Below are positions 781-16,984 of a stretch of 64,000 nucleotides of DNA, in pieces. Numbering within the stretch: the first letter of the stretch is position 1; each line of letters opens with the position of its first letter. The DNA is taken from the NCBI GenBank assembly GCA_038231135.1, contig JBBRLX010000006.1:104123-168122 (forward strand), given 5' to 3'. The position numbers and the translations under genes were made by a program. Below the pieces are notes generated by a model. It saw only the letters and a list, made by a program, of their open reading frames with translations. It was not told where the DNA came from and did not search any database. This DNA is from Candidatus Eiseniibacteriota bacterium. Lineage in GTDB: Bacteria > Eisenbacteria > RBG-16-71-46.

Positions 781-2299
781 CCGCATGCTCGAACGGCCCG
801 CGATCCATGTACGTCACGGGACCGATGCCGGCATTCGGGACCGACGGATCGTCCGCGCGCGGATTGCCGTCCGCGTCGAACGCGGGCCAGTACGGCAGCC
901 CGGACATGCCGTTGTCGATTGCCGCCGAGCCCCCCAGCAGATGGAAGTCGCCGATCGCGGGGTTCGCGAACCGCGGATTCGCCTCGAGCGTGTGAACGTC
1001 CTTGCCGCTGGCGGCGGTGTAGGCCGACACCGAGCTGTACAGCGTCTTCACGTACTTGACGGGATAGTGGCCCCATTCGGAGTTCCAGAACAGGTTGTAG
1101 TCCGACTGGAACCCGACCGCGGACGTCCCGTCGACCCACAGGTTGAACTCGGTCGTCGTGAAGCCGTTGTCGACCGCGATGCAGTCATAGAGCTGGTTGT
1201 TAGGCGACGAGCCTTCGATCGACCAGCCGTCCTTGTAGTTCTTGTACGCCAGGTCTCCGATGTACAGGTTGCCGACCGCGCCCAGGTTGTCGTAGCCGTG
1301 GTCGCCGTTGTTCCACGAGTAGTTGCCGAGGCAGATGTTGTAGTTGGCGCCGGTGTAGAGATTGAGGCCGGTGTCCTGGTTGTGATGCAGGTTGTTGTTC
1401 TCGAACCGGTTCCCCACGCCGTGCGACAGATAGATGCCGTTCGCGGCGCGCTCACGCGGACGCCAGTTGCCCCACGACTCCAAGTTGCGCACGACGGAGC
1501 TGTCGCAGGAGGTCAGGTAGACGCCGTGATCCGCGTTGAGCCACGCTCGGGAGTTCTGGATCAATTCGTAGGACGAGTTCACGATCGAGATGCCGTACTT
1601 GCCGCAATATGAGATCGCGAGACTCGCCAGCGTGCAGTGGTTCGCCGCGGCCGACAGGTAGATCGACTTGTCCTCGGTGCGCGTGATCGTGAAGCCCTGC
1701 AGCGTGACCCACGAGCGCGCCGGCAACAGGAATGCCGAGAGGCGCTTGCCCACCATCAACTGCTGCGCCCCGGGGTTGCCGCCACCCACGTTCACGTACA
1801 GGCCGGTGCCGCTCACCCACGTGCAGGAGTTCGCGGGGATCGTCGTCGGCGAGACGAACGTCGAGTCGAGCAGCCGGGCGCCGTTCGCGAACACCTGCAC
1901 CGGGCTCCAGTTGACGGTCGATGCGAGCCACACGTCGCCCGCGACCTGCGTCCAGCGGCTCGGCGAGCCGAAGTCGTCGGCGCCGTCGATCACCGTCGCC
2001 GGGCTCTCCGCCAGCACGGTGTACGGGCTGGCCGCCGTTCCGGAACTCTTGATCGTCACCTGTTCACGATAAACGCCGGCCTTCACCAGGATTGTGGTGC
2101 CGGCGGCCTGGCGCGCGGTCACCGCCGCTGCGATCGTCCGGTAGGGAAGTGCCGCGGTGCCGGGATTCGCGTCGTTGGCGGACGGGTTCGGGCCGTCCAC
2201 GTAGTACGTGTCCGCGGCGACGCGTCCCGCCGCCCACAGCATCAAGGCCAGCGTGACGACGACAATCTTGGATGTAGTGCGCGATAGGCGCAGGAACAC
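1..2299 (-). CDS. Secreted right-handed parallel beta-helix protein with tandem ~99-aa Ig/cadherin-like repeats; runs off the window start
   Basis: Manual translation: GTG at 2299 with AGGAG upstream; signal peptide then DTYYVDG..SANDANPGTAALPYRTI (DUF1565-like N-cap), Asn/Gly-rich beta-helix rungs (GNRFENNNLHHNQDTGL), NPRF..GDFHLLGGSAAIDNG, then repeated DRAP.V..P...TWTP...GPYTVTFTA units; the frame is still open at position 2. Confidence 0.85.
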   Translation of the reverse strand, partial: MFLRLSRTTSKIVVVTLALMLWAAGRVAADTYYVDGPNPSANDANPGTAALPYRTIAAAVTARQAAGTTILVKAGVYREQVTIKSSGTAASPYTVLAESPATVIDGADDFGSPSRWTQVAGDVWLASTVNWSPVQVFANGARLLDSTFVSPTTIPANSCTWVSGTGLYVNVGGGNPGAQQLMVGKRLSAFLLPARSWVTLQGFTITRTEDKSIYLSAAANHCTLASLAISYCGKYGISIVNSSYELIQNSRAWLNADHGVYLTSCDSSVVRNLESWGNWRPRERAANGIYLSHGVGNRFENNNLHHNQDTGLNLYTGANYNICLGNYSWNNGDHGYDNLGAVGNLYIGDLAYKNYKDGWSIEGSSPNNQLYDCIAVDNGFTTTEFNLWVDGTSAVGFQSDYNLFWNSEWGHYPVKYVKTLYSSVSAYTAASGKDVHTLEANPRFANPAIGDFHLLGGSAAIDNGMSGLPYWPAFDADGNPRADDPSVPNAGIGPVTYMDRGPFEHAVGSDLPPVVVAPQSMSVSENQPLVFAVSASDAQPISTLTANLAGLPAGHHATFGSSADATSGTFTWTPAFGSAPGPYTVTFTAANGLSGTTATTISVVHVDRAPTVAAPASTSGTQGAPISVAVTASDVDGDAIASLTANLSGLPAANTAVFTPNPSQTGGTLSWTPTLSDGPGPYTVTFTASNALSGSGATSITVAAADRAPAVTAPATVTVTENQPLRIDVSAADPDGEAIASLTAVLDGLPAGNTASFSSNPSHTAG

Positions 2300-2500
2300 G
2301 TCCACGCTCCTGAGGCACCGTCCATGGCACGGTGAACTTTGGATGGGAATACAAAACGGCACGCGCGGCGTTGCCCTGTAGTTGAACAAAGCGGTCGCCG
2401 CGTTCGATACCTGCGAGGTCTCTACAAAGCCGTCAACGCAACTTCCGTACCCTGGGGTCCGGACCGCGGACGCGACGGCTGCCAAGCAATTTGCCCGGGT

Positions 2501-2515
2501 TTCCTCTCGGGAAAC
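2501..2515. promoter_or_regulatory. Putative operator/enhancer site TTCCTCTCGGGAAAC (within the dyad GGTTTCC-N5-GGAAACC)
   Basis: Intergenic dyad; 14/15 identical to 5182-5196. Confidence 0.45.
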
Positions 2516-2607
2516 CTTTGGAAATCCGGAGGAATCGTCGAGATTCACGACAATTGCGCTGGGTAGTCATGCGATTTGAGTGCAGTCTGGCCAGGGTTCA
2601 ATTGGGT

Positions 2608-2626
2608 CTGTGGCAGTTCGCCACAG
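2608..2626. promoter_or_regulatory. Perfect inverted repeat CTGTGGC-N5-GCCACAG, possible regulator site
   Basis: Seen directly in the divergent intergenic region. Confidence 0.3.
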
Positions 2627-2866
2627 TCGCATCCGGAGTCCCCCGGATCGGCGGGGGAGGGAGTCCACCCCGGCTGGGGGAATTCACCCGTCGCTTGCGC
2701 CATGAGGCACGGGTCCCGTACCGCGATGACGCGCGCCGGCCGCGGCTCACGGGACAAATCGGGCCGTGGAGTGATGTATGATCGTGTCCGAATCGGAAGC
2801 ATAATCGTGACCCCTCGAGCGCCAGCGCGAGCCGGGCGATCATGGCCGCTGGGAGCTCCCACATTC

Positions 2867-4231
2867 ATGCCGGTGCATTTCGCTGAAGACGATGCCGGTG
2901 CGGCGCCGCGGCGGTTCGCGCAACGCGTAATGCTGCTCGGGGTCGTGGTGGTGTCGGCGCTCGCACTCGCGATCCCGCGATTCCACAACGACACGGCCGG
3001 CCCCGGTCCCGATCTGCGGGGCATCCAGGTCGCACCCGCGCCCGTGGGGACGCTCGGTAGGATGGCCCCCGACAGCGCCGTCGTGATCGTCTATGGCGAC
3101 AGCCGCACCGGGCATCGGGTGCTGACGCAACGATCGGGCGCCCGGATGCTGTACGAGGCGGCGCAATCGCATCGTCCGTCGATGTGGCTCGCCGGGCTCG
3201 AGAATCTGCCGGCGACGGCGCTCGAGGTCGTGTACCCGGACTTCATGGGTTTGCGCGACGTGTGGTCCACGTTCGTCAGCCATCGATTCACAGGCGGCAA
3301 TCAGCCGGGCGTGCTCCGCGCGCTCGAGGCCAACACAGCGGTCGATTTGATCGTGAACACCGGCGACCTGGTGGAGGACGGCCGGCAGCACGTGCAGTGG
3401 GAGGAGTTCGCCGGGTCCCATGCGGCGTTGCGCAACCTCGCGCCGTTCGTCGCCGCCCCCGGCAACCACGAGGCGCTGTGGAAGGCCGCGGCGCGGCGGA
3501 ACTGGGACGCGATCATGGGGCCGCCGCGCGCGCCATTCAGCTACTGGTCGTCCGTGGCCCTCGGTCGGCTGGCGCGGTTCGTCATCCTCGACAGCAACCT
3601 GTTCACGGATCCTCACGACCACTATCCGCCGGCGCTCGAGCAGGCGCTCGTCGACGAACAGCTCGCGTGGGCCGACTCCATGCTCGCCGGTCCCGAGCGG
3701 TTCAAGTTCGTGGTGCTGCATCATCCGCTGGTCACATCGGGGCACCACTGGGACGAATGGACATCGCAGGACGAGCACCCGGCCCAGGACCGCCGCATCC
3801 AGCTGCTCGAGATCCTGAGGCGCCGCCACGTCACCGCGGTGCTCGCGGGCCACGAACACCTGTTTCAGCGGAGCTGGATCTCGGAGCCCGGCGGCGGCGG
3901 ATTGTGGCACATCACCACCGGCGGTGGGGGATCGCCGCTGCACTATGTGACCGACGACGATCGCCGGCGGGCCCGGACGCAGTCGCTGCCGGACTCGGCG
4001 GCGATCGGCGAGATGTTCCCCGAGCAGTCGGTCTACCACTATTGCCGGCTCGTGCTGCGGCCGGATCCCGCGCCCGGCATGGCGGCCGCCGAGTTGCGCA
4101 TCTACCGGGTCGACAGCGCCGGCGCGGCACGGTTGATCGACACCGTGGATCTCGCGTCGCCGCCGGGCGGGCCGGCGGTGAGCGCCGCCGATCATTCCCC
4201 TTTACGCAGGCGGAGTCCGGGCCTACCGTAA
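2867..4231 (+). CDS. Membrane-anchored calcineurin-like metallophosphoesterase (start uncertain, 2774 or 2867)
   Basis: N-terminal hydrophobic anchor; motifs YGDSR, NTGDLVE, PGNHE, LHHP, AGHEH, ITTGGGG. Confidence 0.85.
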   Translation: MPVHFAEDDAGAAPRRFAQRVMLLGVVVVSALALAIPRFHNDTAGPGPDLRGIQVAPAPVGTLGRMAPDSAVVIVYGDSRTGHRVLTQRSGARMLYEAAQSHRPSMWLAGLENLPATALEVVYPDFMGLRDVWSTFVSHRFTGGNQPGVLRALEANTAVDLIVNTGDLVEDGRQHVQWEEFAGSHAALRNLAPFVAAPGNHEALWKAAARRNWDAIMGPPRAPFSYWSSVALGRLARFVILDSNLFTDPHDHYPPALEQALVDEQLAWADSMLAGPERFKFVVLHHPLVTSGHHWDEWTSQDEHPAQDRRIQLLEILRRRHVTAVLAGHEHLFQRSWISEPGGGGLWHITTGGGGSPLHYVTDDDRRRARTQSLPDSAAIGEMFPEQSVYHYCRLVLRPDPAPGMAAAELRIYRVDSAGAARLIDTVDLASPPGGPAVSAADHSPLRRRSPGLP

Positions 4232-4315
4232 TGGGAGTGGTGCGCCGCCATGGCGCGCCGATCGGGTGCAGGGCCGGACCGGGTCCCACGTTCCTCGACC
4301 GGGTTCGGAGTGGCA

Positions 4316-5041
4316 GTGACCGCACGCATCCCATTGTTCGAATTCATGCCGTACGGAGCACCCGAGCTGCATGAGGCGTCGCACCGCCACATGTTCCGCG
4401 CGCTGGCCGCCGCGAGTCTCGTGTGGGTCTTTGTGTTCGCGGCGGGCGTGATGACCGGCGCCCTGCCCGCGCCGGCGACTCGTTTCGTGACACCGACGGT
4501 CGAAGTGCTGCTCGCTCCACCGCCGCCCATGCTGCCGCCACCGCCGGCCCGGACCCAGCCGATCGCGCCCGCGACCTTGTCGCGTGCGCACGGCGCCATC
4601 ATCCCGGTGATCGACGAGCCGCCACCGCCGCCTTTGGCTCCGGACTGGCCGGGTGGCATCCGCGATGCGCAGGGCCTGCTGGGCGGCGAAGCCGGCGACG
4701 CGCCGCCCGTCACCGATCGCGGCGTCGTGGCCGAGCCGCCGCTGCCGAATCTTGGCGACAAGGTGCGCACCGACGAGCTGCCGGTCCTCGTCACCCTCAA
4801 CCAGCCCGAGTATCCGGACATCGCGCGCGAAGCCGGCGTAGAGGGTCTCGTCGTCGTCCACGTGCTCGTCGGCCGGGACGGTCGCGTGATCGACGCGCGG
4901 CTCGACGCGAAATTCTCGGTGCCGATGCTCGACGCCACGGCGCTGGCGTCCGCGCGCAAGCTGGTGTTCCAGCCCGCGATCGTGGACCACCATCCGGTGG
5001 CGGTGTGGGTCGAAATGCCGTACCGGTTTCACCTGCATTGA
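4316..5041 (+). CDS. TonB family energy transducer
   Basis: TM helix, Pro-rich linker, C-terminal PEYPDIAREAGVEGLVVVHVLVGRDGRV..LDATAL..FQPA; GTG start after GGAG. Confidence 0.9.
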   Translation: MTARIPLFEFMPYGAPELHEASHRHMFRALAAASLVWVFVFAAGVMTGALPAPATRFVTPTVEVLLAPPPPMLPPPPARTQPIAPATLSRAHGAIIPVIDEPPPPPLAPDWPGGIRDAQGLLGGEAGDAPPVTDRGVVAEPPLPNLGDKVRTDELPVLVTLNQPEYPDIAREAGVEGLVVVHVLVGRDGRVIDARLDAKFSVPMLDATALASARKLVFQPAIVDHHPVAVWVEMPYRFHLH

Positions 5042-5181
5042 GTGACCGCCGGCCGCGCGACCCCTTCGCGCGGCCGCGGTCCCGGAGCGTCCGACCCGGG
5101 TGCGGCAGGGGTTCGATGCCGCTGCACATCGTGTCGGGCGCGTTCGCCATCCCGTCCCACAACACTCCCGGTTGAAGTTTC

Positions 5182-5196
5182 TTCCACTCGGGAAAC
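5182..5196. promoter_or_regulatory. Putative operator/enhancer site TTCCACTCGGGAAAC
   Basis: Near-copy of 2501-2515, about 80-90 nt upstream of a sigma54-like element. Confidence 0.45.
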
Positions 5197-5274
5197 GCTG
5201 GTTGGGATGCGGCTCGCGCCGTCCCTCATCGCCAAGTTCTTAAGGCGAAGCGACTTAATAACTCCCACCGACGC

Positions 5275-5289
5275 TGGCACCAAAGTCGC
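5275..5289 (+). promoter_or_regulatory. Candidate sigma54 (-24/-12) promoter TGGCAC-CAAAG-TCGC
   Basis: GG and GC are correctly spaced, with one mismatch to TGGCAC-N5-TTGC; preceded by an AT-rich IHF-like tract at 5233-5258. Confidence 0.55.
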
Positions 5290-5403
5290 CTAGACCATGC
5301 CGACTGCAATCACCGCAGCATGGTCGAACCCATGCCACCGGCCGGAAGTTCGCGTCGTTAACAGCCAGACACGACCGACTTCACATCGAACGGACAAACT
5401 GCC

Positions 5404-6786
5404 ATGAATGCCATCGCACTCGCGATCCTGCTGCTGTCCGTGTCCGTGTCCCCCGTCGGCGCTGCCGCGCCTGCGGATTCGGACCGAGTGTCCGACCGCG
5501 CGAGCGCACCGCCGATTGCGGAGAACGCGGACAGCCTCGCAGCGTCCTATGCAGCGCCCTGGAATCCGCCGCGGCCCCTGCTCGCGCGCCGGCCGTGGGA
5601 GCGGGCGATGCTGTTGCCCGGGCGCATCATTTCGCTGCCGCTATCGGGCCTGGGATACCTCACGCGGCGCTCCATGCTCGTGATCGAGGACAGCGGCCGG
5701 GTGCCGATGGGCCCGCAGCCGCCGCGCGCGAAGCACTCGCCGTCCGTGGCGGTCGGATTGTCCCACTTCGGCGATCGCACGGGCGTAGGGCTGTCGCTGG
5801 AGCTGCGCACCCCGGAGCCGCGCCGCGAGTTCGTGCCACGATTCGGCGTCCAGTACTCAGCCACGACGCATTTTTATAACCGCACGCAGGCCACGCTGAC
5901 GAGCGGCCCCGCGAGCCTTCAGTATGCATATGAGTGGCGCCCGCAGGAGCAATTCCATGGCATCGGTCTCGAGAGCGCCGAGGACAGCCTGTCCGACTAT
6001 GCCATCGAGTTCGAGACGGCGCGCGCGGGACTCACCAGAGCCTGGGGCCGGGACCCGGATCGCAATCAGCCCCGGCTGACCCTCAATGCGTGGGGCGGCC
6101 CGCGCAGCGCCCTCACCAGCACCGGCCGCGACGCCAGGCAGGTGCCGTTCGACCGCCGCTTCCCCGGGCTGGCCGGGCTCACGCTCGGACGGCGCGTCGA
6201 GCACCTGACCTACGGCGCCGCGATCAAGCTCGACGAACGTCGGGGCGCTCCCCACTGGAGCCGCGGCGGCGCGCTGACGCTGGCGGCGGAGAACTTCACG
6301 GACCCGGTGCGCGCGCTGGCGCTCCACGATGCCGCCGCGACCGGAGCGGGGTTCCGCCGCTTCACCGGCCAGCTCGACGTGGGCACCTCGTTCATGCGCG
6401 ACCCGCGCTCCCTGCGGCTGATGGCGAAGGTCGTCGATCAGCAGGTCGACGCGCGCGCGGACCGGTTCCTGGTGGCCGATCTGGCCACGCTCGGCGGCCG
6501 CGACGGACTGCTGGGTTACTCGCCAGGACGGTTTCGTGACAAGGACCTGCTGCTCACGCGGCTGACGTATGTGTTCCCGCTCGCGCGGCGGTTCGAAGTC
6601 GATCTGCATTCTGAGTTCGGCGGGGTCTATGGCGACGTGTGGCACGACGTCCGGATCGGCGGGCTCAAACACTCGTTCGGCATGTCACTGAGGGGACGCG
6701 GGGATCGCACTGCGCGCGGGGCGGTCGGATTCGACATCAGCCCCGAATCGATCCGGATCAACTACACACTGGGGGTGCCGGAATGA
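5404..6786 (+). CDS. Omp85/BamA-TamA superfamily outer-membrane beta-barrel without POTRA domains
   Basis: Signal peptide; alternating beta-strands; LGGRDGLLGYSPGRFRDKD resembles the Omp85 loop-6 (LRGY..RFRD) motif; C-terminal strands. Confidence 0.7.
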   Translation: MNAIALAILLLSVSVSPVGAAAPADSDRVSDRASAPPIAENADSLAASYAAPWNPPRPLLARRPWERAMLLPGRIISLPLSGLGYLTRRSMLVIEDSGRVPMGPQPPRAKHSPSVAVGLSHFGDRTGVGLSLELRTPEPRREFVPRFGVQYSATTHFYNRTQATLTSGPASLQYAYEWRPQEQFHGIGLESAEDSLSDYAIEFETARAGLTRAWGRDPDRNQPRLTLNAWGGPRSALTSTGRDARQVPFDRRFPGLAGLTLGRRVEHLTYGAAIKLDERRGAPHWSRGGALTLAAENFTDPVRALALHDAAATGAGFRRFTGQLDVGTSFMRDPRSLRLMAKVVDQQVDARADRFLVADLATLGGRDGLLGYSPGRFRDKDLLLTRLTYVFPLARRFEVDLHSEFGGVYGDVWHDVRIGGLKHSFGMSLRGRGDRTARGAVGFDISPESIRINYTLGVPE

Positions 6787-8177
6787 GCCGCTCGATCGCA
6801 GGCGTGATGCTGGCAGTGCTCCTCGCCGGCACGGGTGCCGCGGGCGCGATCGCACGGGCGGCCGATACGACGAAGGAGCACGCCACGGCACCGGGCGCCG
6901 CGGCCGCGCGTGATTCGGGCTCGGCCAGGCATGCCGGCCCCGAGCCACATCCCTATTCCTATGCCTACGACATACTCGACAACAGTTTCGTGCGACCGGC
7001 CACCCGGGTGCTCGACGTGGCACTGCTGGCGCGCAAGCTGACCGGCAATCTCCGCGAGGCGGCGAACATCGACGACCAGGACCAGGTGCGGCTGCCGAGC
7101 ACCTGGTGGCAGCCGCGCCTGGGGTTCCGCCCGGTGACGGTCGCGCAGATGCTCACCGGCCCGGGGCCCGGCACCGGTCCCGCCCCCGGCAAGTGGACGG
7201 TGACGAAGGCCAAGGACCAGGGCGTGACGCCGGGATTCCAGATCGAGGATTCACACGGGGACAAGTTCCTGCTCAAATTCGATCCCGTGGGATGGCCCGA
7301 CCTCGCGTCCGGCGCCGCCGTGATCGGCAGCCGCCTCATGTGGGCGGCCGGCTACAACGTGCCCGACGACGCGATCGGGCAGTTCCGCCCCGAGGATCTC
7401 GAGATCAAGCGGGGCGCGACCTACACCGACGCCAACCGCCGCAAACAGCCGATCAACGACGCGTACATCCAGCAACTCCTCGCGCGGGTCGCGCGTCAGC
7501 AGGACGGCAGCTACCGCTGCATCGCGAGCCGGATGCTCGATGGCAAGCCGCTCGGGCCGTTCGAATATCATGGCCGCCAGCGCGACGATCCCGAGGACCG
7601 GATTCCGCACGAGCTGCGGCGTGAGCTGCGGGGGCTGTGGACGGTGTGCGCGTGGCTCAATCACGCGGACAGCCGCGGCCCGAATACGCTCGACATGTGG
7701 GTCACCGATCACGGCCGGTCGTTCGTACGCCACAACCTGATCGACTTCAGCGCCATCCTCGGCGCCGGTGCGACCGGCAAGCGGGCGTACGCCACCGGGA
7801 CGGAGTACTATGTCGACTTCGGCGTGATGCGCCGGGAGTTGACGACCCTGGGGCTGCGGCCCTTCGCCTGGGAATCCTCGGTGGATCCAAACATGAAGGC
7901 AGTCGGGTTCGTGGAGTCCGCGACGTTCGATCCCGTCGGGTGGCGGCCCGACTATCCCAACCCCGCGTTCGACGCGCGCACCGAGCGCGACATTCGCTGG
8001 GGCGCCCGGATCGTGGCGGGCTTCACGGATGACCACATTCGTGCCGCCGTCGACGCCGCGAAGTATTCCGATCCGCGTGCGGCCGCGTACATCACCCGCG
8101 TGCTGATCGAGCGCCGCGACAAGCTGGTGCGGCGGTGGCTCGGCGCGGAGGCCGCTCGACTGCAGGCTGGCCGATGA
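6783..8177 (+). CDS. Secreted protein with HipA/PI4K-like atypical kinase motifs
   Basis: ATGA overlap with the upstream gene; signal peptide MSRSIAGVMLAVLLAG..ARA; QGVTPGF, KFLLKFD, AGYNVP, WLNHADSRGPN, LIDF. Confidence 0.6.
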   Translation: MSRSIAGVMLAVLLAGTGAAGAIARAADTTKEHATAPGAAAARDSGSARHAGPEPHPYSYAYDILDNSFVRPATRVLDVALLARKLTGNLREAANIDDQDQVRLPSTWWQPRLGFRPVTVAQMLTGPGPGTGPAPGKWTVTKAKDQGVTPGFQIEDSHGDKFLLKFDPVGWPDLASGAAVIGSRLMWAAGYNVPDDAIGQFRPEDLEIKRGATYTDANRRKQPINDAYIQQLLARVARQQDGSYRCIASRMLDGKPLGPFEYHGRQRDDPEDRIPHELRRELRGLWTVCAWLNHADSRGPNTLDMWVTDHGRSFVRHNLIDFSAILGAGATGKRAYATGTEYYVDFGVMRRELTTLGLRPFAWESSVDPNMKAVGFVESATFDPVGWRPDYPNPAFDARTERDIRWGARIVAGFTDDHIRAAVDAAKYSDPRAAAYITRVLIERRDKLVRRWLGAEAARLQAGR

Positions 8178-9709
8178 GGCGAGCCGCCACCGTCGCGATG
8201 CTGCTGATGCTGGTGGATGGGTGTTCGCATATGGGCCGGCTGCGGTATCAGCCGCAGACGGTATCGCCCACGCTCACGCACAAGGCCGGCGAGGCGCCGC
8301 CGGCGAATCCCGCGGCCATGCAGCTCCAGCCGCTGTTCGGCGACACGCTGATCGGGCTCGTGCCCGGCACGGCGGATTCCTCGCGGCGCTACCTGGGCCG
8401 GCTGCACACCGGATTCACCGCCGACACGCTCAACCTCATGCTGTTCGGAGACAATCGCCCCGGCTGGCGCGCGTCGCGGCTGAGCACCGAATACACCGCG
8501 CTACGGGAGATGTTTTCGCCGAACCTCGCGAAGATTGGCCGCGGGCTCGTGACGATTCCGTGGGCGCTGGTGAAGGGGCTCTATCCGGACCTGGCGCTGA
8601 TCCGCGACATTCCCGACCGCCTTCGCAAGGCTCCGACCGCGGGTCGCGAACGGCAGGTGGTGAGCGCGATGCTGGCCAAGATCGATTCGCTGCAGGCGCA
8701 CGGCCAGTCGGTGGCGGCGGTGCTCAACACCGGCGACCTGGTGTACGACGGCCGTTACCCGTCGACGTGGGAGCGGTTCCTGCGCATTACCCGCCCGCTG
8801 TCGTCGCGGGTGCCCTACTTCCCGGTGGCCGGCAACCACGAGCGTACGGACACCGAGGACGGCCGCGAGAACTGGCGCACCGCGACCGGGCTGCCCGTCG
8901 GCGGCGACCGGCTCTACTACTGCTTCGACACCGCGGACGGCTGGCTGCGCGTCATTGCGCTCGATTCGAATCCGATCGTCGATCCCGGCAACCTCTGGAC
9001 CCGCGAGGTGCAGATCAAGTATTCCGCCGAGGAGTTCGCGTGGCTGACGGAGCGCGTGAAGGAGCATCGTGGCCCGGTGATCGTGTTCATGCACCACCCG
9101 CCATTCTCGGCCGGCTTCCATCGCGTCGAATGGCAGCGCGACTCGGTGCTGTCGAAGCGCCGCGAGACCATGGTGGAGGACCTGCACAAGTCCGGCATCT
9201 CGATCATCGCCGGCGGCCACGAACACGCGTACGAACGCGCCCTGCTGCGGTGGCCGGACGCGGTGCTGATCGCGATCGTCTCCGGGGGCGCCGGCGCCCC
9301 GCTCTACCCGCTGCCGCCACGGGCGGAGGCCGCGCGGGTGATGAGCGAATACCACGTCGCGGGCTCGACGGTGCAGCCGGCAGACGTGTTCACCGCCCAG
9401 GCATTCCACTTCATCCATCTGCGGTTCTGGTTCGGCGGCGGCGAGTTCTACACCTACGCCGTGGATGACAAGGCGAAGGCCACGCTGATCGACAAGGTGC
9501 AGATCGACCTGTCGCGCTACGGCACGCCCAAGATCGACCAGTTCAAAATTCCGATCCCGCCGGCGAAGGGCCAGACGAGCGCGTCCGAGGCCACGGAGGA
9601 GAAGAAGAACCAGACCGTCCACCCGGTGACGAAGGCGGATTCGACCGCGAGCAAGCGTCTGCTGTCGAAACCGGCGCCCGCCAGGAAGACGACCAGGCGC
9701 AAACCCTGA
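8174..9709 (+). CDS. Exported (lipoprotein-like) metallophosphoesterase, purple-acid-phosphatase-like
   Basis: ATGA overlap; MRRAATVAMLLMLVDGC; motifs FGDNR, NTGDLVY, AGNHE, MHHPP, GGHEHAYER, SGGAGAP. Confidence 0.85.
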   Translation: MRRAATVAMLLMLVDGCSHMGRLRYQPQTVSPTLTHKAGEAPPANPAAMQLQPLFGDTLIGLVPGTADSSRRYLGRLHTGFTADTLNLMLFGDNRPGWRASRLSTEYTALREMFSPNLAKIGRGLVTIPWALVKGLYPDLALIRDIPDRLRKAPTAGRERQVVSAMLAKIDSLQAHGQSVAAVLNTGDLVYDGRYPSTWERFLRITRPLSSRVPYFPVAGNHERTDTEDGRENWRTATGLPVGGDRLYYCFDTADGWLRVIALDSNPIVDPGNLWTREVQIKYSAEEFAWLTERVKEHRGPVIVFMHHPPFSAGFHRVEWQRDSVLSKRRETMVEDLHKSGISIIAGGHEHAYERALLRWPDAVLIAIVSGGAGAPLYPLPPRAEAARVMSEYHVAGSTVQPADVFTAQAFHFIHLRFWFGGGEFYTYAVDDKAKATLIDKVQIDLSRYGTPKIDQFKIPIPPAKGQTSASEATEEKKNQTVHPVTKADSTASKRLLSKPAPARKTTRRKP

Positions 9710-9750
9710 GCCCGCACGGCATCGTGTCGTCCGGCCGCGGAGGAACGGTC

Positions 9751-11151
9751 ATGAACTCGACAGTGACGGAAGCCACGCCGGACCCGGTCGCCAGGCGCCC
9801 GCTCGACCGGTTCCTCGGCATCTTCGCCGACGTTCGTGGCGGGGAGGCCGGCACCGCGCTGTTGCTGATGCTCAACATCTTCCTGCTGCTCGCGGCTTAC
9901 TACCTGCTCAAGACGATCCGCGAGCCGCTGATCCTCACCGTCGCCGGCGGCGCCGAGGTCAAGAGCTACGCCGCGGCGGCGATGGCGGCGTTGCTGATCG
10001 TGGTCGTGCCGATCTACAGCGCGGTGGCGTCGCGGGTGTCGCGCGTGAAGCTCATCAACGGCGTGACGCTGTTCTTTATCGCCTGCCTGATCGCGTTCTT
10101 CGCCCTCAGCCGTGCCGGCATCGAGATCGGCATCCCGTTCTTCATCTGGGTGGGCATCTTCAACCTGATGGTGATCGCCCAGATGTGGGCGTATGCGAAC
10201 GACGTCTACACCGTCGACCAGGGCAAACGGCTGTTCGCGATCGTCGGATTCGGCGCGTCGCTGGGTGCGATCGCGGGGTCGTTCGTCACCGGGCAACTGG
10301 TGAAGCAGTACGGTCCGTACCCGTTCATGCTCGGCGCCGCCGCGCTGCTCGGCGTGTGCATGCTGCTCACGAACTGGGTGAACATGCGCGAGCGTCGCGC
10401 CCGCGGCGGCGCCCCGACTACCGCGGGTGACCGAGGCGCGACGGAGAACGCCGCGACGGAGAACGCCCCGGCGGCCGGTGCGGACGGCGCCGTGAAGGGC
10501 CGCAGCGGCTTCGCGCTGGTGTTCTCCGACCGTTACCTGCTGCTCATCGCGGTGCTCATGACGGTGTACAACCTCGTGAACACGAACGGCGAGTACATCC
10601 TCGGCAAGACCGTGGTGAACCTGTACACCGCGGCCCACGGCGCCGCGGCTGCGGGGGGCCTCAACGAGAAGAAGGTGATCGGCGAGTTCTACGGCAACTT
10701 CTTCACGCTCGTGAACATCCTCTCCGCGCTGGTGCAGGCGTTCGTCGTGTCGCGGGTGCTCAAGAAGTTCGGCGTGCGCGTCGCGCTGCTGGTGCTGCCG
10801 ATCGTGGCACTGGGCGGCTACGCCACGATGGCATTCATTCCGGTGCTGTGGCTGATCCGCTCCGTCAAGCTGGCGGAGAACTCGATCGACTATTCGTTGC
10901 AGAGCACGACGCGCAACGCCCTCTATCTCCCCACGAGCCGCGAGGCCAAGTACAAGGCGAAGCAGGCCAACGACACGTTCTTCGTGCGGCTCGGCGACGT
11001 CATCTCCGCCGGAGTGGTGTTCGCCGGCACGACCTGGCTGGGATTCGCGCCGCCGCAGTTCGCGCTGGTGAACGTCGGGCTGATCGTCGTGTGGCTGGTG
11101 CTGGCGGTCGCGATCGGCAGGCGGTTCCGCAGCATGGCCGGCACGGCCTGA
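9751..11151 (+). CDS. NTT/TLC family nucleotide (ATP/ADP) transporter
   Basis: GGAGG RBS; about 12 TM; DVRGGE, YYLLKTIREPL, QMWAYANDVYTVDQGKRLF, K..ENSIDYSL...LYLP..EAKYKAK..DTFFVRLGD. Confidence 0.85.
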   Translation: MNSTVTEATPDPVARRPLDRFLGIFADVRGGEAGTALLLMLNIFLLLAAYYLLKTIREPLILTVAGGAEVKSYAAAAMAALLIVVVPIYSAVASRVSRVKLINGVTLFFIACLIAFFALSRAGIEIGIPFFIWVGIFNLMVIAQMWAYANDVYTVDQGKRLFAIVGFGASLGAIAGSFVTGQLVKQYGPYPFMLGAAALLGVCMLLTNWVNMRERRARGGAPTTAGDRGATENAATENAPAAGADGAVKGRSGFALVFSDRYLLLIAVLMTVYNLVNTNGEYILGKTVVNLYTAAHGAAAAGGLNEKKVIGEFYGNFFTLVNILSALVQAFVVSRVLKKFGVRVALLVLPIVALGGYATMAFIPVLWLIRSVKLAENSIDYSLQSTTRNALYLPTSREAKYKAKQANDTFFVRLGDVISAGVVFAGTTWLGFAPPQFALVNVGLIVVWLVLAVAIGRRFRSMAGTA

Positions 11152-11215
11152 CGACATCGGTGGCCCGGTCCGGCGTGATGCATCCCGCGCCGGCGCCTGG
11201 GGCGAGGGAGGCACG

Positions 11216-13933
11216 CTGAAGTTCCTGAACAAGTTCATCCGCCGCCTCGGCCTCGAGCGCGGCGAGGCCACGACGCTCGGCTTGATGGGCGTGCTCGTGG
11301 CCACGCTGATGTGCGCCTACACCATCGCCAAGGTCGTGCGCGACGCGCTGTTCATCACCGAATTCGGCGCGCTCAAGCTGCCGTATGGCTACATCGGCGT
11401 GGCGCTCGCCTCGGCCGGCTTCGTGTGGCTCGAGGGTCAGGTGGCCAGCCGGTTCACGCGCGTCGGCGCCTCGCGCTTCAACCAGTACGCGGCGATCGCG
11501 GTCAGCGCCGCGGCCGCGGCGGCGTTCCCACACGCGCCGCATCGCATCACCGGCGTGTTCTACGTGTGGACCGGCAGCCAGGCGATGATGCTGCTGCCGC
11601 ACTTCTGGGTGCTCGCGCTCGACGTGTGGGACTCACGGCGGGCACGGCGGGTGTTCCCGATTCTCGGCGGCTTCGGGCTGCTCGGCGGCCTGGCCGGCGG
11701 CGCGTTCGCGGGCTGGGCGCAGCCGTTCGTGCACCGCATGGGCCTGCTGTGGGTGCTGTTCGGCCTGCTCGTGATCGCGCACGTGCTCACGCGGTTCGTC
11801 GAGGTCCATCGTGCCCACATGCCGGGGCCGGCGGATGCGGTGTCGGCGCTGTCGAGATGGGAGATCATCCGGCGGTCCAAGTACATCCGGATCTTCGCCG
11901 TCGGTCTCGCGCTGTCGGTGATCGTGTCCACGCTGGTCGATTTCCAGTTCAAGCTCTACCTGCAGCACGCCTATCCCGATTCGCGCTCGCTCACCCAGTT
12001 CCTCGGCCGGTTCTACGTGGGATTGAACGCCGCCGCATTGCTGTTCCAGTTCGGCGTGGCGGGGTGGCTGATGCAACGGTTCGGACTCGCGGCGTCGACG
12101 GGTCTCCAGCCCACCGCGGTCATGGTGTTCGCCACCTGGGCCGCGATCAGCAGCGGCTGGTGGATCGTGATCGCGATGCGGTGGGTGCAGGGGGTGGTGT
12201 TCCAGACCCTCGGCAAGCCCGCGGCGGAGATCTACTACGCGGCCATCCGGCCGATCGAGCGGCGCTCCATCAAGCCCGCGATCGACACGCTGGTGGAGCG
12301 CTGGTCCGATGCCCTGGTGGGCGTGGTACTGGTGGTGGTGCTGCACGCGCTCAAGGCCCCGATGCCGGTGATCGCGATCGGCACCGTGGCGCTGTGTGCG
12401 ATCTGGCTGCTCGTGCTGCTGCGGTTGAACCGGTACTACGGCAAGGCGTTCCAGAACATCCTCAGCGCGCGCTGGATCGAGCCCGAAGCTTCTCCGGAAT
12501 CGTTCAAGATTCCATCCGCGCGGCGGGCGCTCCGCGCGGCTCTGCAGTCGCCCGACGAGGCCCAGGTGGTGCTGGCGCTCAAGCTCAGCCGCAACGCGCG
12601 GGATGCCGGCACCGCCGCCGCCGTGCGCGCGTGCCTGGGGCATGCCTCGCCGGGCGTGCAACTGGCCGCCGTCGAGGCGATGGAGGCGCTGCGACTACGC
12701 GATGCCGATGGCGTGATCGAAGGGTTCCTGGGCGCCCGCTACGATCGTCTGCGCCGCGCGGCCGTCAGCTACCTGCTGTCGCGCAGCAGTCAGCCGGCGG
12801 AGCTCGCCGGCCGCCTGCTCGAAGGCGACGACGCGGCGCTGCGCCAGCACGTGCTGGATGTCATGAGCGAGCGCCCGCAGGAAGCCGAAGGCTGGGTGGC
12901 GCCGCAATGGATCGATGCGCGGATCGCCGCCGGCACGCCCGAGGATCTACTGCTGGCGGCGCGGGCGCTCGGCACGACCGCCGCGGCCGGGGCGGTGCCC
13001 AAGCTGCGCCTGCTGCTGGCGCACGACGACCTCGAGGTCCGGCGCGCGACGTTGCAGGCCGCGGCCCGGCGGCCGCGGCCCCAGCTGCTCGAGATGCTGC
13101 TGCCCCTGCTGCTCGTGCCCGAGCTGAACTACGAGGCGCTCGATGCCGTGGCCGCGATCGGCGACCCCGCGGTGCCCGCGCTGCAGAAGATGCTCGAGGC
13201 CGCTCCGGACTCGCCGTGGCAGCCGATCGCGGCGCGCACGCTGGCGCGCATCGCCACATCCCGCGCCGCGGGCGTGCTGCAGAAGCTCGCGCGCAGCGGC
13301 GATCCGGGCATGCGCCAGGTCGGGTTGGAGTCGCTGGCCCGCATCCGCCTGCGCTCGGGCCAGCCGATGATCCCCCGCGGCCTCGCGCACCGGTTGTTTC
13401 TACGCGAGCTGGGTGACTATCGCGCCTGCCTCGAGCCCACGATCACGCTCGATGCCGTGCCCGCGGCGGAAGTCCGGCTGCTGTCCGAGAGCTACTGGGA
13501 GTCGTCGGAGCTGGCGCTCACGCGTGCGATCGACGCGCTCGCCTGCTGGTACGATCCACGCCCGCTGTTCGGCGTGATCGGGCGGCTGACGTCGAAGGAC
13601 GCCCGGCAGGCGGCGCCCGCGCTCGAATACCTGGGGCACGTGCTGCCGAGAAGCGTGTTCCGATCGGTGAGCCGGATCTTCGAGACTCAGGCGAGGGAGG
13701 ACCCCGCCGGTCCGCCCGACGACGCGGCTGTCGCGGCCTGCATCCGGTCGGCGTGGGGCAGCGCCGATGCCTGGTTGCGCGCCTGCGCCGTGCGCGCGTC
13801 CCGCGCGATCCCGGGATTCGACACCGGGCTGTTCGCGGGCGGCGACGAGCATCCCGTGGTGCGTGCGGAGCTCGAGGCGCTCGCGCACGGCGGTCGCCGT
13901 GGAACGGCGCTGCCGGCCGGGGCGGCCGCATGA
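11216..13933 (+). CDS. NTT-family transporter fused to HEAT repeats (probable CTG start at 11216; first canonical start is 11282)
   Basis: LERGE, KVVRDALF, FW.LA.DVWDSRRARRVFP, TLVDFQFK, KPAIDTLVERWSD, followed by HEAT-like helices (SPGVQLAAVEAM, DLEVRRATLQA). Confidence 0.85.
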   Translation: MKFLNKFIRRLGLERGEATTLGLMGVLVATLMCAYTIAKVVRDALFITEFGALKLPYGYIGVALASAGFVWLEGQVASRFTRVGASRFNQYAAIAVSAAAAAAFPHAPHRITGVFYVWTGSQAMMLLPHFWVLALDVWDSRRARRVFPILGGFGLLGGLAGGAFAGWAQPFVHRMGLLWVLFGLLVIAHVLTRFVEVHRAHMPGPADAVSALSRWEIIRRSKYIRIFAVGLALSVIVSTLVDFQFKLYLQHAYPDSRSLTQFLGRFYVGLNAAALLFQFGVAGWLMQRFGLAASTGLQPTAVMVFATWAAISSGWWIVIAMRWVQGVVFQTLGKPAAEIYYAAIRPIERRSIKPAIDTLVERWSDALVGVVLVVVLHALKAPMPVIAIGTVALCAIWLLVLLRLNRYYGKAFQNILSARWIEPEASPESFKIPSARRALRAALQSPDEAQVVLALKLSRNARDAGTAAAVRACLGHASPGVQLAAVEAMEALRLRDADGVIEGFLGARYDRLRRAAVSYLLSRSSQPAELAGRLLEGDDAALRQHVLDVMSERPQEAEGWVAPQWIDARIAAGTPEDLLLAARALGTTAAAGAVPKLRLLLAHDDLEVRRATLQAAARRPRPQLLEMLLPLLLVPELNYEALDAVAAIGDPAVPALQKMLEAAPDSPWQPIAARTLARIATSRAAGVLQKLARSGDPGMRQVGLESLARIRLRSGQPMIPRGLAHRLFLRELGDYRACLEPTITLDAVPAAEVRLLSESYWESSELALTRAIDALACWYDPRPLFGVIGRLTSKDARQAAPALEYLGHVLPRSVFRSVSRIFETQAREDPAGPPDDAAVAACIRSAWGSADAWLRACAVRASRAIPGFDTGLFAGGDEHPVVRAELEALAHGGRRGTALPAGAAA

Positions 13934-14625
13934 TCACTCCCGTCGAGCGCGTGCTGATCCTGAAGGGCGCCGATCTGCTCAAGGACGTCGGTCCGCGCCA
14001 CCTGCTGCGGCTCGCCGACGTCGCGCGCGAGATCCCGCTGACCAAGGGGGACACGATCTATCGCGAGGACGACCCCGCCGACGCGCTCTATCTCGTGGTC
14101 GAGGGCCGGGTGCGCATCACCGCCGGCGACCGCACGACGTCGGAGGTCGGTCCCGGCGAGGCGTTCGGCACCTGGGCGCTGGTCGACGATTCGAGCCGCG
14201 GGCAGCAGGCGGAGTGCCTCGAGGACGGCATCGCGCTCGCGCTCGGCCGGGACGAGTTCTACGAAGTGGCGGCGGGCGATCTGACACTGCTCCAGCAGGT
14301 CGTGCGCGTGCTCGCCAAGCGATTGCGCGCGATGGTCTCGGACCGGCCTGGTGAGGCGCGGGTCGAGGGCGAAGGCATCGAAAAGCCCGAGGCGAAGGTC
14401 GAGGCGGAGCAGGCAGCGGCCGGTGCAGCACCCGCGCCGCAGGGAACGGCCGCTGCGGGTGCGGCGCCCGGGCCCGCGGTGCCCGTGACGCCGGGTGCCG
14501 CGCTGGCGGCGGCGGCGCTCGGCCAGACGGTTCCCGAGGGCGCGTCTCCGGTCGCGGCGGCGCCCGCCGGCTCGAAGGATGCGATCGATGAAGCCTACGA
14601 CCGTCCGAACCCGGACCCGCTGTAG
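13930..14625 (+). CDS. Cyclic-nucleotide-binding domain protein with Ala/Pro-rich tail
   Basis: ATGA overlap; VERVLILKGADLL, IYREDDPADALYLVVEGRV, GPGEAFG; no HTH. Confidence 0.85.
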   Translation: MITPVERVLILKGADLLKDVGPRHLLRLADVAREIPLTKGDTIYREDDPADALYLVVEGRVRITAGDRTTSEVGPGEAFGTWALVDDSSRGQQAECLEDGIALALGRDEFYEVAAGDLTLLQQVVRVLAKRLRAMVSDRPGEARVEGEGIEKPEAKVEAEQAAAGAAPAPQGTAAAGAAPGPAVPVTPGAALAAAALGQTVPEGASPVAAAPAGSKDAIDEAYDRPNPDPL

Positions 14626-14793
14626 ATGCCACGTGCCTGCGATTCGCATCGGAGCCATGACGTGGTATCGCGGCGGCCCCGCGGCACTTGATTCCGCGGC
14701 CGGTCCGGGTCCACCCTTGGTGGGCTGCCGTGCGCTGCCGATGGAATGATCGAACGCCGTGAACCCCCACCCTAAGCTGGAGTCCCCCACGTC

Positions 14794-16695
14794 GTGAAGA
14801 CCGGTTCGCAGGATCCGAACGAACTCTTCCGCGCCCTCGTCGACGGGGTGCGGGACTACGCGATCTTCATTCTGGATCCCGCGGGCAACATCGTCACCTG
14901 GAACACCGGCGCGGAACGCATCAAGGGCTACCTCGCCCACGAGATCATCGGCAAGCACTTTTCGGTGTTCTACCCGCCCGATGCGCTGGCGGCCGACTGG
15001 CCGGCGACCGAACTGCGCGCCGCCACCAGCGAGGGCCGGTTCGAGGACGAGAACTGGCGCATTCGAAAGGACGGGACGCGGTTCTGGGCGAACGTCATCA
15101 TCACCGCGATCCGCAATCCGGCGGGCGAGCTCATTGGGTTTTCCAAGATCACGCGCGACCTGACCGAGCGGATGGAGTCCGTCGCGGCGCTGCGCGACAC
15201 GGAGTCGCGGTATCGTGGAATGTTCGAGGGCTCGCGGGACGGGGTGCTGATCGTGAACGCCGTCACGCACCAGATCATCGACGCCAATCCGGCAATCGCC
15301 GTGCTGCTCGGCCGGTCGCGCGAGGAACTGCTCGGCAAGCTGCCGTGGGAGATCGGCCTGTTCCGTGACGAGGACGCGAACCGGACGGCTCAGCGCATGA
15401 TGCTCGAGCAGGGCTATGTCCGGCACGACGACGTGGTCCTGTCGCGCGGCGATTCCGATCTCGAAGTCGAGCTGCAGGGCAACCGCTACGAAGTGGCGGG
15501 GCAGCCGGCGATCCAGTACAACGTGCGCGACATCCGCGAGCGCCGCCAGCTGGAGCGCGCCCTGCGGCAGACCGAGTCAATGGCCGAGGTCAATCGCCGC
15601 AAGGACGAGTTCCTCGCGCTGCTGTCGCACGAGCTGCGCAATCCGCTGTCGGCGATCACGAATGCGGTCGAGCTCCAGCGTATGCAGCCGGAAGCGGGCG
15701 GCGTGCCGGGGCAGATCCGCGCGATCATCGAGCGCCAGGTGGGCCGGCTGACGAGCATGGTCGAGGATCTGCTCGAGGTGTCGCGCATCGCGACGGGACG
15801 CCATCGGCTCAATCTCGAGTCCGTGGAGGGACGCGAGCTCGTGGAGCACGCCGTCGAGACCGTGCGCCCCCTGCGGGAGCAGAAGAATCACACACTGGCG
15901 CTGAAGTTGTCCGACGCTCCGATATGGCTCGACGCGGATCCGGTCCGGGTGGAACAGGTCGCGGTGAATCTGCTGACGAACGCCGTCAAGTACACCCCGA
16001 CCGGCGGCCACATCGAGGTGTGCTTCGAGATCGAGGACGGCAAAGCGGTGCTGCGGGTGAAGGACAACGGCGTCGGGATCACCGCCGATCTGCTGCCGCA
16101 CATCTTCGAATTGTTCACCCAGGCCGATCGCACCCTGCACCGCTCCGAAGGCGGACTCGGCGTGGGGCTCACCGTCGTGCAGCGCGTGGTACAGCTCCAC
16201 GGGGGAACGGTCGAGGCGAACAGCGCCGGCCTGAATCAGGGGGCGGAATTCATCGTGCGCCTGCCGGTCTCGAGCCCGCAGCACGGCGAGAGGCCGGAGG
16301 CCGATCGCGCGTCCGCCACCGGCAGGCGGCGCCTGCGCGTGGTGGTTGTGGACGACAACCGCGATTCCGCGGATACCATCGCGATGCTGCTGGAGGGCTC
16401 GGGACGCGACGTCCGGGTCGAGTACACGGGGCCGGACGGGCTCGAGACCGTGCGGTCGTTCCGGCCCGATGCCGTGCTGCTCGACATCGGATTGCCCGGC
16501 CTCGACGGCTACGAGGTGGCGCGCGCGATCCGGCGGGACCCGGAGCTGAGCGGGGTCAAGCTCATCGCCGTGAGCGGCTACGGTCAGGAATCCGATCGCC
16601 GGCGGTCGAAGGACGCCGGGTTCGACGTGCACATGGTGAAGCCCGTCGAACCGCAGACGATCGAAGATGCGCTGAACGCGGTGACCGGGACCTAG
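14794..16695 (+). CDS. Cytoplasmic hybrid sensor histidine kinase (PAS-PAS-HisKA-HATPase-REC)
   Basis: DYAIFILDPAG..WNTGAERIKGY; LSHELRNPL; NLLTNAVKYT; DNGVG; GGLGVGL; VVDDN..LLDIGLPGLDG. Confidence 0.95.
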   Translation: MKTGSQDPNELFRALVDGVRDYAIFILDPAGNIVTWNTGAERIKGYLAHEIIGKHFSVFYPPDALAADWPATELRAATSEGRFEDENWRIRKDGTRFWANVIITAIRNPAGELIGFSKITRDLTERMESVAALRDTESRYRGMFEGSRDGVLIVNAVTHQIIDANPAIAVLLGRSREELLGKLPWEIGLFRDEDANRTAQRMMLEQGYVRHDDVVLSRGDSDLEVELQGNRYEVAGQPAIQYNVRDIRERRQLERALRQTESMAEVNRRKDEFLALLSHELRNPLSAITNAVELQRMQPEAGGVPGQIRAIIERQVGRLTSMVEDLLEVSRIATGRHRLNLESVEGRELVEHAVETVRPLREQKNHTLALKLSDAPIWLDADPVRVEQVAVNLLTNAVKYTPTGGHIEVCFEIEDGKAVLRVKDNGVGITADLLPHIFELFTQADRTLHRSEGGLGVGLTVVQRVVQLHGGTVEANSAGLNQGAEFIVRLPVSSPQHGERPEADRASATGRRRLRVVVVDDNRDSADTIAMLLEGSGRDVRVEYTGPDGLETVRSFRPDAVLLDIGLPGLDGYEVARAIRRDPELSGVKLIAVSGYGQESDRRRSKDAGFDVHMVKPVEPQTIEDALNAVTGT

Positions 16696-16984
16696 AACCT
16701 GACGTCCGGCGCAGCGTCCGGAGCGCGATCGCGAACGAACCCGGTACCCGGCGCGACTTTCGTCCCCCGGTTCCCCGCGCCCATGCCCCCGCGTCGCCGC
16801 ACTCGGCCCAGTTATTCCCGGCATGACATCCCCGTGAGACGTGGATGGTGCCATGCGACCTCGCCGCGCAGCATGCTGGAACCGCGACGCCACCGGTCGC
16901 CGCACGATGGAGCCGAATTTCATGACCTCTCGATTCGTTCCGGTTCGCACCCGACTGCTGACGAGCTCCGCCGCTCCGCCGCTC

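Follow-up and report, generated by a model that had tools for sequence, protein, structure and literature searches.

A conserved gene module joining a POTRA-less Omp85-family barrel and an exported kinase-fold protein with relatives of ATP/ADP translocases in a Candidatus Eiseniibacteriota genome

The textbook periplasm is free of ATP, and envelope processes are explained by energy that TonB, Tol or ABC bridges relay from the inner membrane, or by donors, of which undecaprenyl pyrophosphate is one. In animals, the kinases of the secretory pathway, such as Fam20C, are supplied by an ATP carrier of the endoplasmic reticulum and Golgi. A conserved bacterial operon has been described in which the gene of an ATP/ADP translocase (NTT) fused to HEAT repeats is followed by, or fused to, a cyclic-nucleotide-binding (CNB) gene; its function is unknown there too and, in the available text of that account, the proposal is a control of ATP uptake, not of export (PMC5381601; Major, Embley and Williams 2017). 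Canonical NTTs placed in cyanobacteria and E. coli export ATP when ADP is supplied outside, as stated in the accessible part of PMC11632070. Here we analysed a stretch of 64,000 nucleotides (the window) from a Candidatus Eiseniibacteriota bacterium (assembly GCA_038231135.1, contig JBBRLX010000006.1, positions 104,123 to 168,122 of the forward strand), and we found in it a gene module whose constant core is an Omp85-family barrel and an exported kinase-fold protein, with NTT-family carriers as the most frequent further partners. The genes of the module and the two genes upstream of it are the following.

g1, 2867..4231, + strand: membrane-anchored calcineurin-like phosphoesterase (Pfam Metallophos, 55.6 bits)
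g2, 4250..5041, + strand: TonB-family protein (Pfam TonB_C, 65.2 bits; TIGR01352, 48.5 bits, above its cut-off)
g3, 5404..6786, + strand: POTRA-less Omp85-family outer-membrane barrel with a signal peptide, assigned from a structure model
g4, 6783..8177, + strand: predicted exported protein-kinase-like enzyme of an uncatalogued family, assigned from a structure model and conserved residues
g5, 8174..9709, + strand: lipoprotein calcineurin-like phosphoesterase (Pfam Metallophos, 52 bits)
g6, 9724..11151, + strand: inner-membrane carrier of the NTT/TLC (ATP/ADP translocase) family (Pfam TLC, 62 bits, and MFS_1)
g7, 11282..13933, + strand: NTT-HEAT fusion carrier (Pfam HEAT_2, 44.9 bits; TLC, 26.1 bits)
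g8, 13930..14625, + strand: cytoplasmic protein with a cyclic-nucleotide-binding fold (Pfam cNMP_binding, 60.5 bits)

The initial annotation had listed eight co-oriented genes with these domains and with three ATGA overlaps, and all of these are real according to the open reading frame list, Pfam and the overlap check: the eight + strand frames were confirmed at their coordinates, in a region of about 69% G+C, and start and stop codons overlap at 6783-6786, 8174-8177 and 13930-13933. The genes g5 and g6 are separated by 14 bases, g6 and g7 by 130 bases, and g2 and g3 by 362 bases. Judged from this spacing and the coordinates, g3 to g8 look like one or two transcription units, with g1 and g2 separate. 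A scan of positions 2400-17000 was uninformative, with no promoter-like site (0.9 expected) and 4 terminator-like sites (4.8 expected). The public sequencing runs listed no holder of RNA data.

Upon comparing the locus with the described NTT-HEAT and CNB operon, we observed that g7 and g8 share with it the C-terminal HEAT fusion and the overlapping downstream CNB gene, whereas the available text of PMC5381601 reports no Omp85 barrel, exported kinase-fold protein, phosphoesterase or second plain NTT alongside. As in the engineered endosymbionts of PMC11632070, where ATP is released by exchangers of the NTT type placed in the inner membrane of a bacterium when ADP is outside, the present carriers belong to the NTT family; the carriers used there are canonical plastid and chlamydial NTTs that were artificially expressed, according to the part of that article that is accessible, whereas here they are native and remote members in free-living bacteria. 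The known part of the locus is the NTT-HEAT and CNB pair (PMC5381601, as far as its available text goes), and the whole module is without a described bacterial counterpart in the literature searched: no publication on it was found in the full-text literature on periplasmic or extracytoplasmic kinases, periplasmic ATP, or Omp85 together with ATP/ADP translocase, subscription journals being outside the coverage. With respect to the animal secretory pathway, g4 would, like Fam20C (4kqb, fold match at E 8.8e-4), need carrier-supplied ATP outside the cytosol. This is an analogy of logic and not a shown homology; here the carriers are of a different family, the compartment is the bacterial periplasm and the system is a predicted one.

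We examined the kinase-like protein g4, for which no match was found in Pfam, NCBIfam or PDB sequence searches. Against the Pfam families HipA_C, HipA_2 and PI3_PI4_kinase the window protein gave 0 families at E<=5, and HipA_2 was touched by only 4 of 40 members of the g4 family, with a best E of 0.13. For the structure model (mean predicted local distance difference test, pLDDT, 83.9; predicted template modelling score, pTM, 0.85), 8 of 8 Foldseek matches at E<=1e-3 were kinases (actin-fragmin kinase 1cja, CtkA 3akj/3akk/3akl, Fam20C 4kqb), and the weaker fold matches were also kinases, including Rio2, HipT, HipA, Vps34, PI4KIIalpha and MavQ. The overall fold is shared with CtkA (3akj/3akk/3akl), actin-fragmin kinase (1cja), HipA (4pu5) and HipT (7ab3), at Foldseek E values from 1.4e-4 to 1.5e-2 and a target TM-score of up to 0.57. 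In an alignment of 40 family sequences from three phyla, with 33-75% identity, K165, D296 (in NHADSRGPN) and D321 (in LIDFG/S) are invariant, H294 and N301 are at least 90% conserved, and K144, G147 and G151 of a glycine-rich stretch are nearly invariant. The catalytic-type residues lie in the expected places of the model, in a strand at 161-166 and in a loop after the helix at 285-292, with the catalytic roles being assigned by motif and secondary-structure position, not by superposition.

Regarding its location, g4 carries a signal peptide with a predicted cleavage near Ala-Arg-Ala at about residue 25, and a signal-like hydrophobic N-terminus is found in 25 of 25 full-length family members, four of which have a lipobox; both kinase copies of Kofleriaceae have a lipobox as well. 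The family is large, with 1359 matches at E<=1e-3 among the candidates scored, and none of the best 120 matches (59-75% identity) carries a Pfam domain. Fused long forms of g4 (813-2320 amino acids) were not found at E<=1e-10, which is weak evidence. In a protein atlas the neighbours of g4 are unnamed 'secreted protein' clusters, and the nearest named ones, Fam20C (0.84) and HipA_2 and PI3_PI4_kinase (0.82-0.84), serve as leads only. When compared with kinases of the HipA/CtkA type, g4 is alike in its catalytic-loop-like HxDxxxxN and DFG-like motifs and differs by its export signal, by extra conserved N- and C-terminal regions, by its Omp85 barrel partner and by the lack of sequence-level membership. 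The kinase fold and the extracytoplasmic placement proposed initially for the protein at 6783 have thus held, since the fold, the conserved catalytic-type residues and the export signal were all found, and g4 is best described as an exported kinase-fold enzyme that is apparently active, judging by its conserved residues and model.

Directly upstream of g4, the barrel gene g3 has no match in Pfam or NCBIfam and gave nothing meaningful in a PDB sequence search. Its AlphaFold model (pLDDT 71.6) contains 16 strands at residues 114-456, and of its 109 Foldseek matches at E<=1e-3 the best is the BamA barrel 7nrf (1e-9), with Sam50 and TamA next. Residues 1-111 comprise a signal peptide, one helix and low-confidence coil, with no POTRA-like beta-alpha-alpha-beta-beta unit, and several positions within these N-terminal ~110 residues are nearly invariant though the model confidence there is low; it is possible that they serve as a docking segment. 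The call of a POTRA-less Omp85 protein made in the initial annotation therefore stands, as the strand number, the order of the Foldseek matches and the missing POTRA unit agree with it. Compared with the BamA, TamA and Sam50 barrels, g3 is alike in having 16 strands and in that distant homologues reach Pfam PF01103, and it differs in lacking POTRA domains, in scoring below the Pfam threshold and in being encoded directly before a kinase-fold gene. For PF01103, with its cut-off of 24 bits, the homologues that occupy this position in Acidobacteriota and Kofleriaceae reach 27-55 bits. By aligned coordinates, 26 of the 32 kinase copies with room for a barrel have one immediately before the gene, and Pfam adds two further loci (L024 and L027).

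Omp85 proteins are known to export partners in two-partner secretion (TPS). Given the constancy of the barrel-kinase pair, which is the most constant unit and also occurs without a nearby NTT in a Terriglobia clade, the barrel could be a dedicated translocator that surfaces the kinase-fold protein or releases it onto other cells or outside substrates, as reported for H. pylori CtkA, a secreted kinase that is among the best fold matches of g4; the NTT linkage would then be regulatory or unrelated. We consider this decidedly unlikely. The barrel lacks a POTRA domain that could receive a passenger, the export signal of the kinase is a common signal peptide or lipobox, with no TPS-type domain recognised in the protein, there is no ATP source outside the cell, and the co-occurrence and close adjacency of NTT genes in three phyla would be left unexplained.

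To delimit the conserved unit, we scanned reference genomes for kinase loci and compared the resulting 30 loci by tblastn with the window proteins. The block that recurs elsewhere is g3-g8 only (5404-14625). As g2 and the flanking genes g9 and g10 (described below) are not kept beside it and no other locus has g1 ahead of the barrel, the conserved unit consists of six genes, not eight. Two layouts were observed among the relatives labelled Candidatus Eisenbacteria. The first, type A, is colinear, in the order barrel, kinase, g5-type phosphoesterase, NTT, NTT-HEAT and CNB, and is complete in five loci (L003, L004, L007, L011, L012) and cut by contig ends in others. The second, type B (L013-L015, L017, L019), is divergent: barrel, kinase, g1-type phosphoesterase and NTT share one strand and NTT-HEAT(-CNB) is on the opposite one. 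Variants of it occur in L009 and L020. Both layouts are present in the window's own genome, where a diverged second copy lies on contig 12 (L036:9301-15266); its kinase is 58% and its barrel 37% identical, NTT-HEAT and CNB are on the opposite strand, and the kinase is followed not by a phosphoesterase or plain NTT but by a DAO oxidoreductase and an Rce1-like protease.

Outside this phylum, the loci of Acidobacteriota and Kofleriaceae contain a kinase homologue of 33-42% identity that is preceded by an Omp85 barrel reaching PF01103 and flanked by PAP2 or PF04185 phosphatases, a beta-lactamase-family gene or PPK2. In Kofleriaceae, a second stretch on the same contig holds a barrel, a kinase lipoprotein, PAP2 and DUF2252, and then a barrel, a kinase lipoprotein, NTT and NTT-HEAT. 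Additionally, in two Acidobacteriota genomes (L052, L053) an NTT gene comes after the kinase gene, and these run convergently with genes for an NTT-like protein and a multi-pass Hanks kinase. In L053 the gene before the kinase encodes an Omp85 barrel, and in L052 a PhoD phosphatase is encoded upstream. Conserved linkage in other genomes, on which the idea of a system depended from the outset, is thus found in three phyla.

We investigated the co-occurrence of kinase and NTT genes in 151 genomes of the window phylum (kinase at E<=1e-10, g6-type NTT at E<=1e-60) and in 201 genomes each of Myxococcota and Acidobacteriota, in which any NTT-family gene was counted at E<=1e-15. In the window phylum, the kinase was found in 83 genomes and the g6-type NTT in 74, with 71 having both, 12 the kinase only, 3 the NTT only and 65 neither, so that the NTT is present in 71 of 83 kinase-positive genomes (70 of 82 without the unpublished genome G020) compared with 3 of 68 kinase-negative ones. 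Of the 74 NTT genomes, 58 have the NTT no more than 5 kb from the kinase gene, and in 57 it is downstream on the same strand. The gaps between the two genes fall into two classes, one of 57-621 bases, where the genes are adjacent (18 genomes), and one of 1.1-2.4 kb, with room for one gene (40 genomes). Among Myxococcota, all 18 kinase-positive genomes had an NTT-family gene, compared with 50 of the 183 without the kinase, and it lay within 10 kb of the kinase in 12 of the 18. For Acidobacteriota the corresponding figures are 31 of 36 (the unpublished genome G203 included) and 47 of 165, and a g6-type NTT at the stricter E<=1e-120 was found in 13 of 36 kinase-positive and 12 of 165 kinase-negative genomes.

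In a tree of 35 kinase copies, the NTT-linked copies are found in several deep branches, the branches being long and their deep order unsure. Since the NTT partnership recurs in rearranged gene orders in three phyla, a functional tie is favoured over inherited synteny. That a functional module coupling the barrel, the exported kinase and the NTT carriers is real appears to us much more probable than any export of ATP by these carriers.

Several of the compared loci showed features of their own. The contigs L009, L010 and L011 are labelled Limnocylindria, Verrucomicrobiia and Saccharimonadaceae, respectively, and their kinase genes (62-68% identity) fall inside the Eisenbacteria clade of the tree, for which mis-binned contigs are a more likely explanation than recent transfer. 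A type A copy in L030 gave fragmentary matches to barrel, kinase and CNB, suggesting frameshifts or poor assembly, and the same genome has an intact type B copy (L019). In Vicinamibacterales, a kinase-family copy (L028:9407-11509) is split by an in-frame stop, as a broken gene or an assembly error, and 2.5 kb further downstream there is an intact barrel-kinase pair with PPK2 after it. In the Kofleriaceae locus L051, DUF2252 and PAP2 (13181-15114(-)) lie between two barrel-kinase pairs, and a DSP-type phosphatase (4630-5379) and a second PAP2 (5347-6321) come after the NTT-HEAT gene. In three Acidobacteriota loci (L050:4541-6118(-), L052:11371-13065(-), L053:7602-9299(-)) a Hanks-type kinase gene comes after an NTT or NTT-like gene and is thus a recurring partner of the carriers; the kinase domain comes after about six predicted membrane helices and would be cytoplasmic, judged by eye from charge and helix count. 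The module in the window is flanked (14794-19252; 2-2548(-)) by a PAS histidine kinase with a receiver domain (g9), a DUF5916 protein (g10) and a beta-helix/Big_9 protein, and none of these three genes was kept beside the module in the related loci.

Upon closer examination of the carriers, both g6 and g7 score above the Pfam PF03219 cut-off of 21 bits and match 'ADP,ATP carrier protein 1' in PDB (9j3n; E 5.8e-9 and 3.7e-4, respectively), with g7 also matching alpha-Rep HEAT designs. In g7 the TLC match covers residues 185-282 and HEAT_2 residues 613-686, and the HEAT part would be cytoplasmic. Colinear orthologues of g7 with 56-61% identity are present in six loci (L003, L004, L007, L008, L011, L012), and orthologues of g8, whose start lies inside the stop codon of g7 at 13930, come after g7 in L003, L004, L007, L011, L012 and L030.

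The phosphoesterases g1 and g5 both exceed the Metallophos (PF00149) cut-off of 21.5 bits, and the metal-binding blocks GD[SN]R, GDLV[EY], GNHE, HH and GHEH are present in their translations. The blocks of g5 (GDNR, GDLVY, GNHE, HH, GHEH) are purple-acid-phosphatase-like, and its sole PDB sequence match is the plant diphosphonucleotide phosphatase 1 (3zk4, E 4.9e-6). A lipobox Cys is found in 9 of 10 g5 orthologues and in 6 of 7 phosphoesterases of the type B layout, whereas g1 has, from its translation, an N-terminal hydrophobic anchor and no lipobox. Across the 30 related loci, the tblastn match of g1, at 38-44% identity, is the lipoprotein phosphoesterase of the type B layout, which follows the kinase gene in L010 and L013-L019; the TonB gene g2 had no match in any of them.

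Taken together with the background on NTTs, these components suggest a mechanism in which the NTT carriers export ATP to the periplasm for the exported kinase in exchange for ADP, a tentative proposal for which we put the chances slightly below even. The carriers g6 and g7 would send ATP out and take ADP back, g4 would phosphorylate a target of the envelope in the periplasm, and the barrel g3 would hold or present the kinase. A phosphoesterase would reverse the phosphorylation mark or degrade stray nucleotide, and the NTT-HEAT carrier with its CNB partner would gate the nucleotide supply from the cytoplasmic side. In its most general form, free-living diderms would energise their periplasm through an ATP/ADP exchanger, with an Omp85-docked kinase marking envelope proteins, lipids or glycans, lipoprotein phosphatases resetting the marks and a second, HEAT/CNB-gated carrier setting the supply; as a complete scheme we regard this as rather doubtful. 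Energy or nucleotide parasitism was considered as a role for the carriers and rejected, since the 4.1 Mb genome has purH, pyrF and ATP synthase and so has no need of carriers that take energy or nucleotides from elsewhere.

A number of observations weigh against ATP export and against a tightly knit system. ATP would be expected to leak through outer-membrane porins, and the kinase, transport and binding activities of the module members are predicted ones. From the earlier interpretation of the locus, the linkage, the fold and the export of the kinase were found, while ATP export and the phosphorylated target are still conjectural; likewise, from the eight genes taken initially as one system the g3-g8 block recurs, and g1 and the TonB gene g2 turned out by tblastn over the 30 loci to be local neighbours outside the unit. 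In Acidobacteriota, 23 of 36 kinase-positive genomes have no g6-type NTT, only 7 of 36 have an NTT-family gene within 10 kb of the kinase, and five kinase carriers (G183, G199, G239, G277, G296) have no NTT-family match at E<=1e-15, which speaks against strict dependence. In the Terriglobia clade, none of seven kinase copies (six with full flanks, one on a short contig) has an NTT within 6 kb. The Fisher odds ratios of the co-occurrence (128 in the window phylum, 15.6 and 7.2 in Acidobacteriota) overstate the case and are descriptive only, because related genomes are not independent.

The canonical phosphate-binding cassette of cyclic-nucleotide (cNMP) binding proteins is FGE...R[ST]A. In the colinear layout the cassette of g8 reads FGT...R[G/D], with the Glu missing, and in the divergent layout it reads FGEL... 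with the Arg missing; as one canonical cNMP-contact residue is absent in each layout, the ligand is uncertain and may be something other than cAMP or cGMP. For the carriers, the TIGR00769 scores of 54.5 (g6) and 18.5 bits (g7) compare with an equivalog cut-off of 387.2 for NTP/NDP exchangers, and because both are remote TLC members their substrate may not be ATP. This distance from the characterised exchangers favours an explanation in which the kinase-fold protein uses another phosphodonor, or is a pseudokinase or nucleotide sensor, and the NTTs carry another solute, such as a different nucleotide, a nucleotide-activated compound or an anion that is not a nucleotide. For lipid A, a periplasmic phosphotransfer with undecaprenyl pyrophosphate as donor is known, a PPK2 gene adjoins the kinase gene in L028, and the five Acidobacteriota carriers without a detected NTT gene fit this explanation as well. 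Nevertheless, the full catalytic-type set and the glycine-rich K144/G147/G151 are kept as expected of a nucleotide-using kinase, and the linkage is specific to NTT-family genes, so that we find this explanation unlikely.

Furthermore, the phosphatases adjoining the module span unrelated families (Metallophos, PAP2, PF04185, PhoD, DSP-PTPase), and such variety fits a general phosphate chemistry or scavenging as well as it fits a specific reversal step. In a scavenging pathway, the barrel would admit organophosphates or nucleotides, the phosphoesterases would process them, the NTTs would import nucleotides or phosphate-bearing products and the kinase-fold protein would be a binding or processing factor. 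The Metallophos, PF04185, PAP2 and PhoD phosphatases are typical scavenging exoenzymes, g5 has a diphosphonucleotide phosphatase as its only relative in PDB, the module in the window is closely preceded by a TonB gene, and all naturally characterised NTTs import, as stated in the available text of PMC5381601. We nevertheless judge scavenging to be improbable. The TonB gene is not kept with the module, the genome makes its own purines, pyrimidines and ATP, and a hydrolytic import would give no role to an exported enzyme with a kinase-type Lys, Asp, Asn, Asp set in three phyla. Moreover, the constant partners of the NTT are the kinase and the barrel, not a phosphatase, and in 18 of the 58 linked genomes the NTT comes directly after the kinase, leaving no place for a phosphatase between them.

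Overall, the proposed export of ATP to an envelope kinase gains its interest from a module that pairs an exported, apparently active kinase with relatives of ATP/ADP carriers and that makes periplasmic ATP directly testable. Should ATP export prove wrong, there would still be a large and uncatalogued kinase-fold family, its undescribed constant pairing with a POTRA-less Omp85 barrel and a tie to NTT genes that needs an explanation. If it is true, the NTT and NTT-HEAT genes, which are widespread in free-living bacteria, would gain a first physiological role, the biology of the envelope would come to include reversible phosphorylation, and the module would correspond in bacteria to the kinase system of the eukaryotic secretory pathway.

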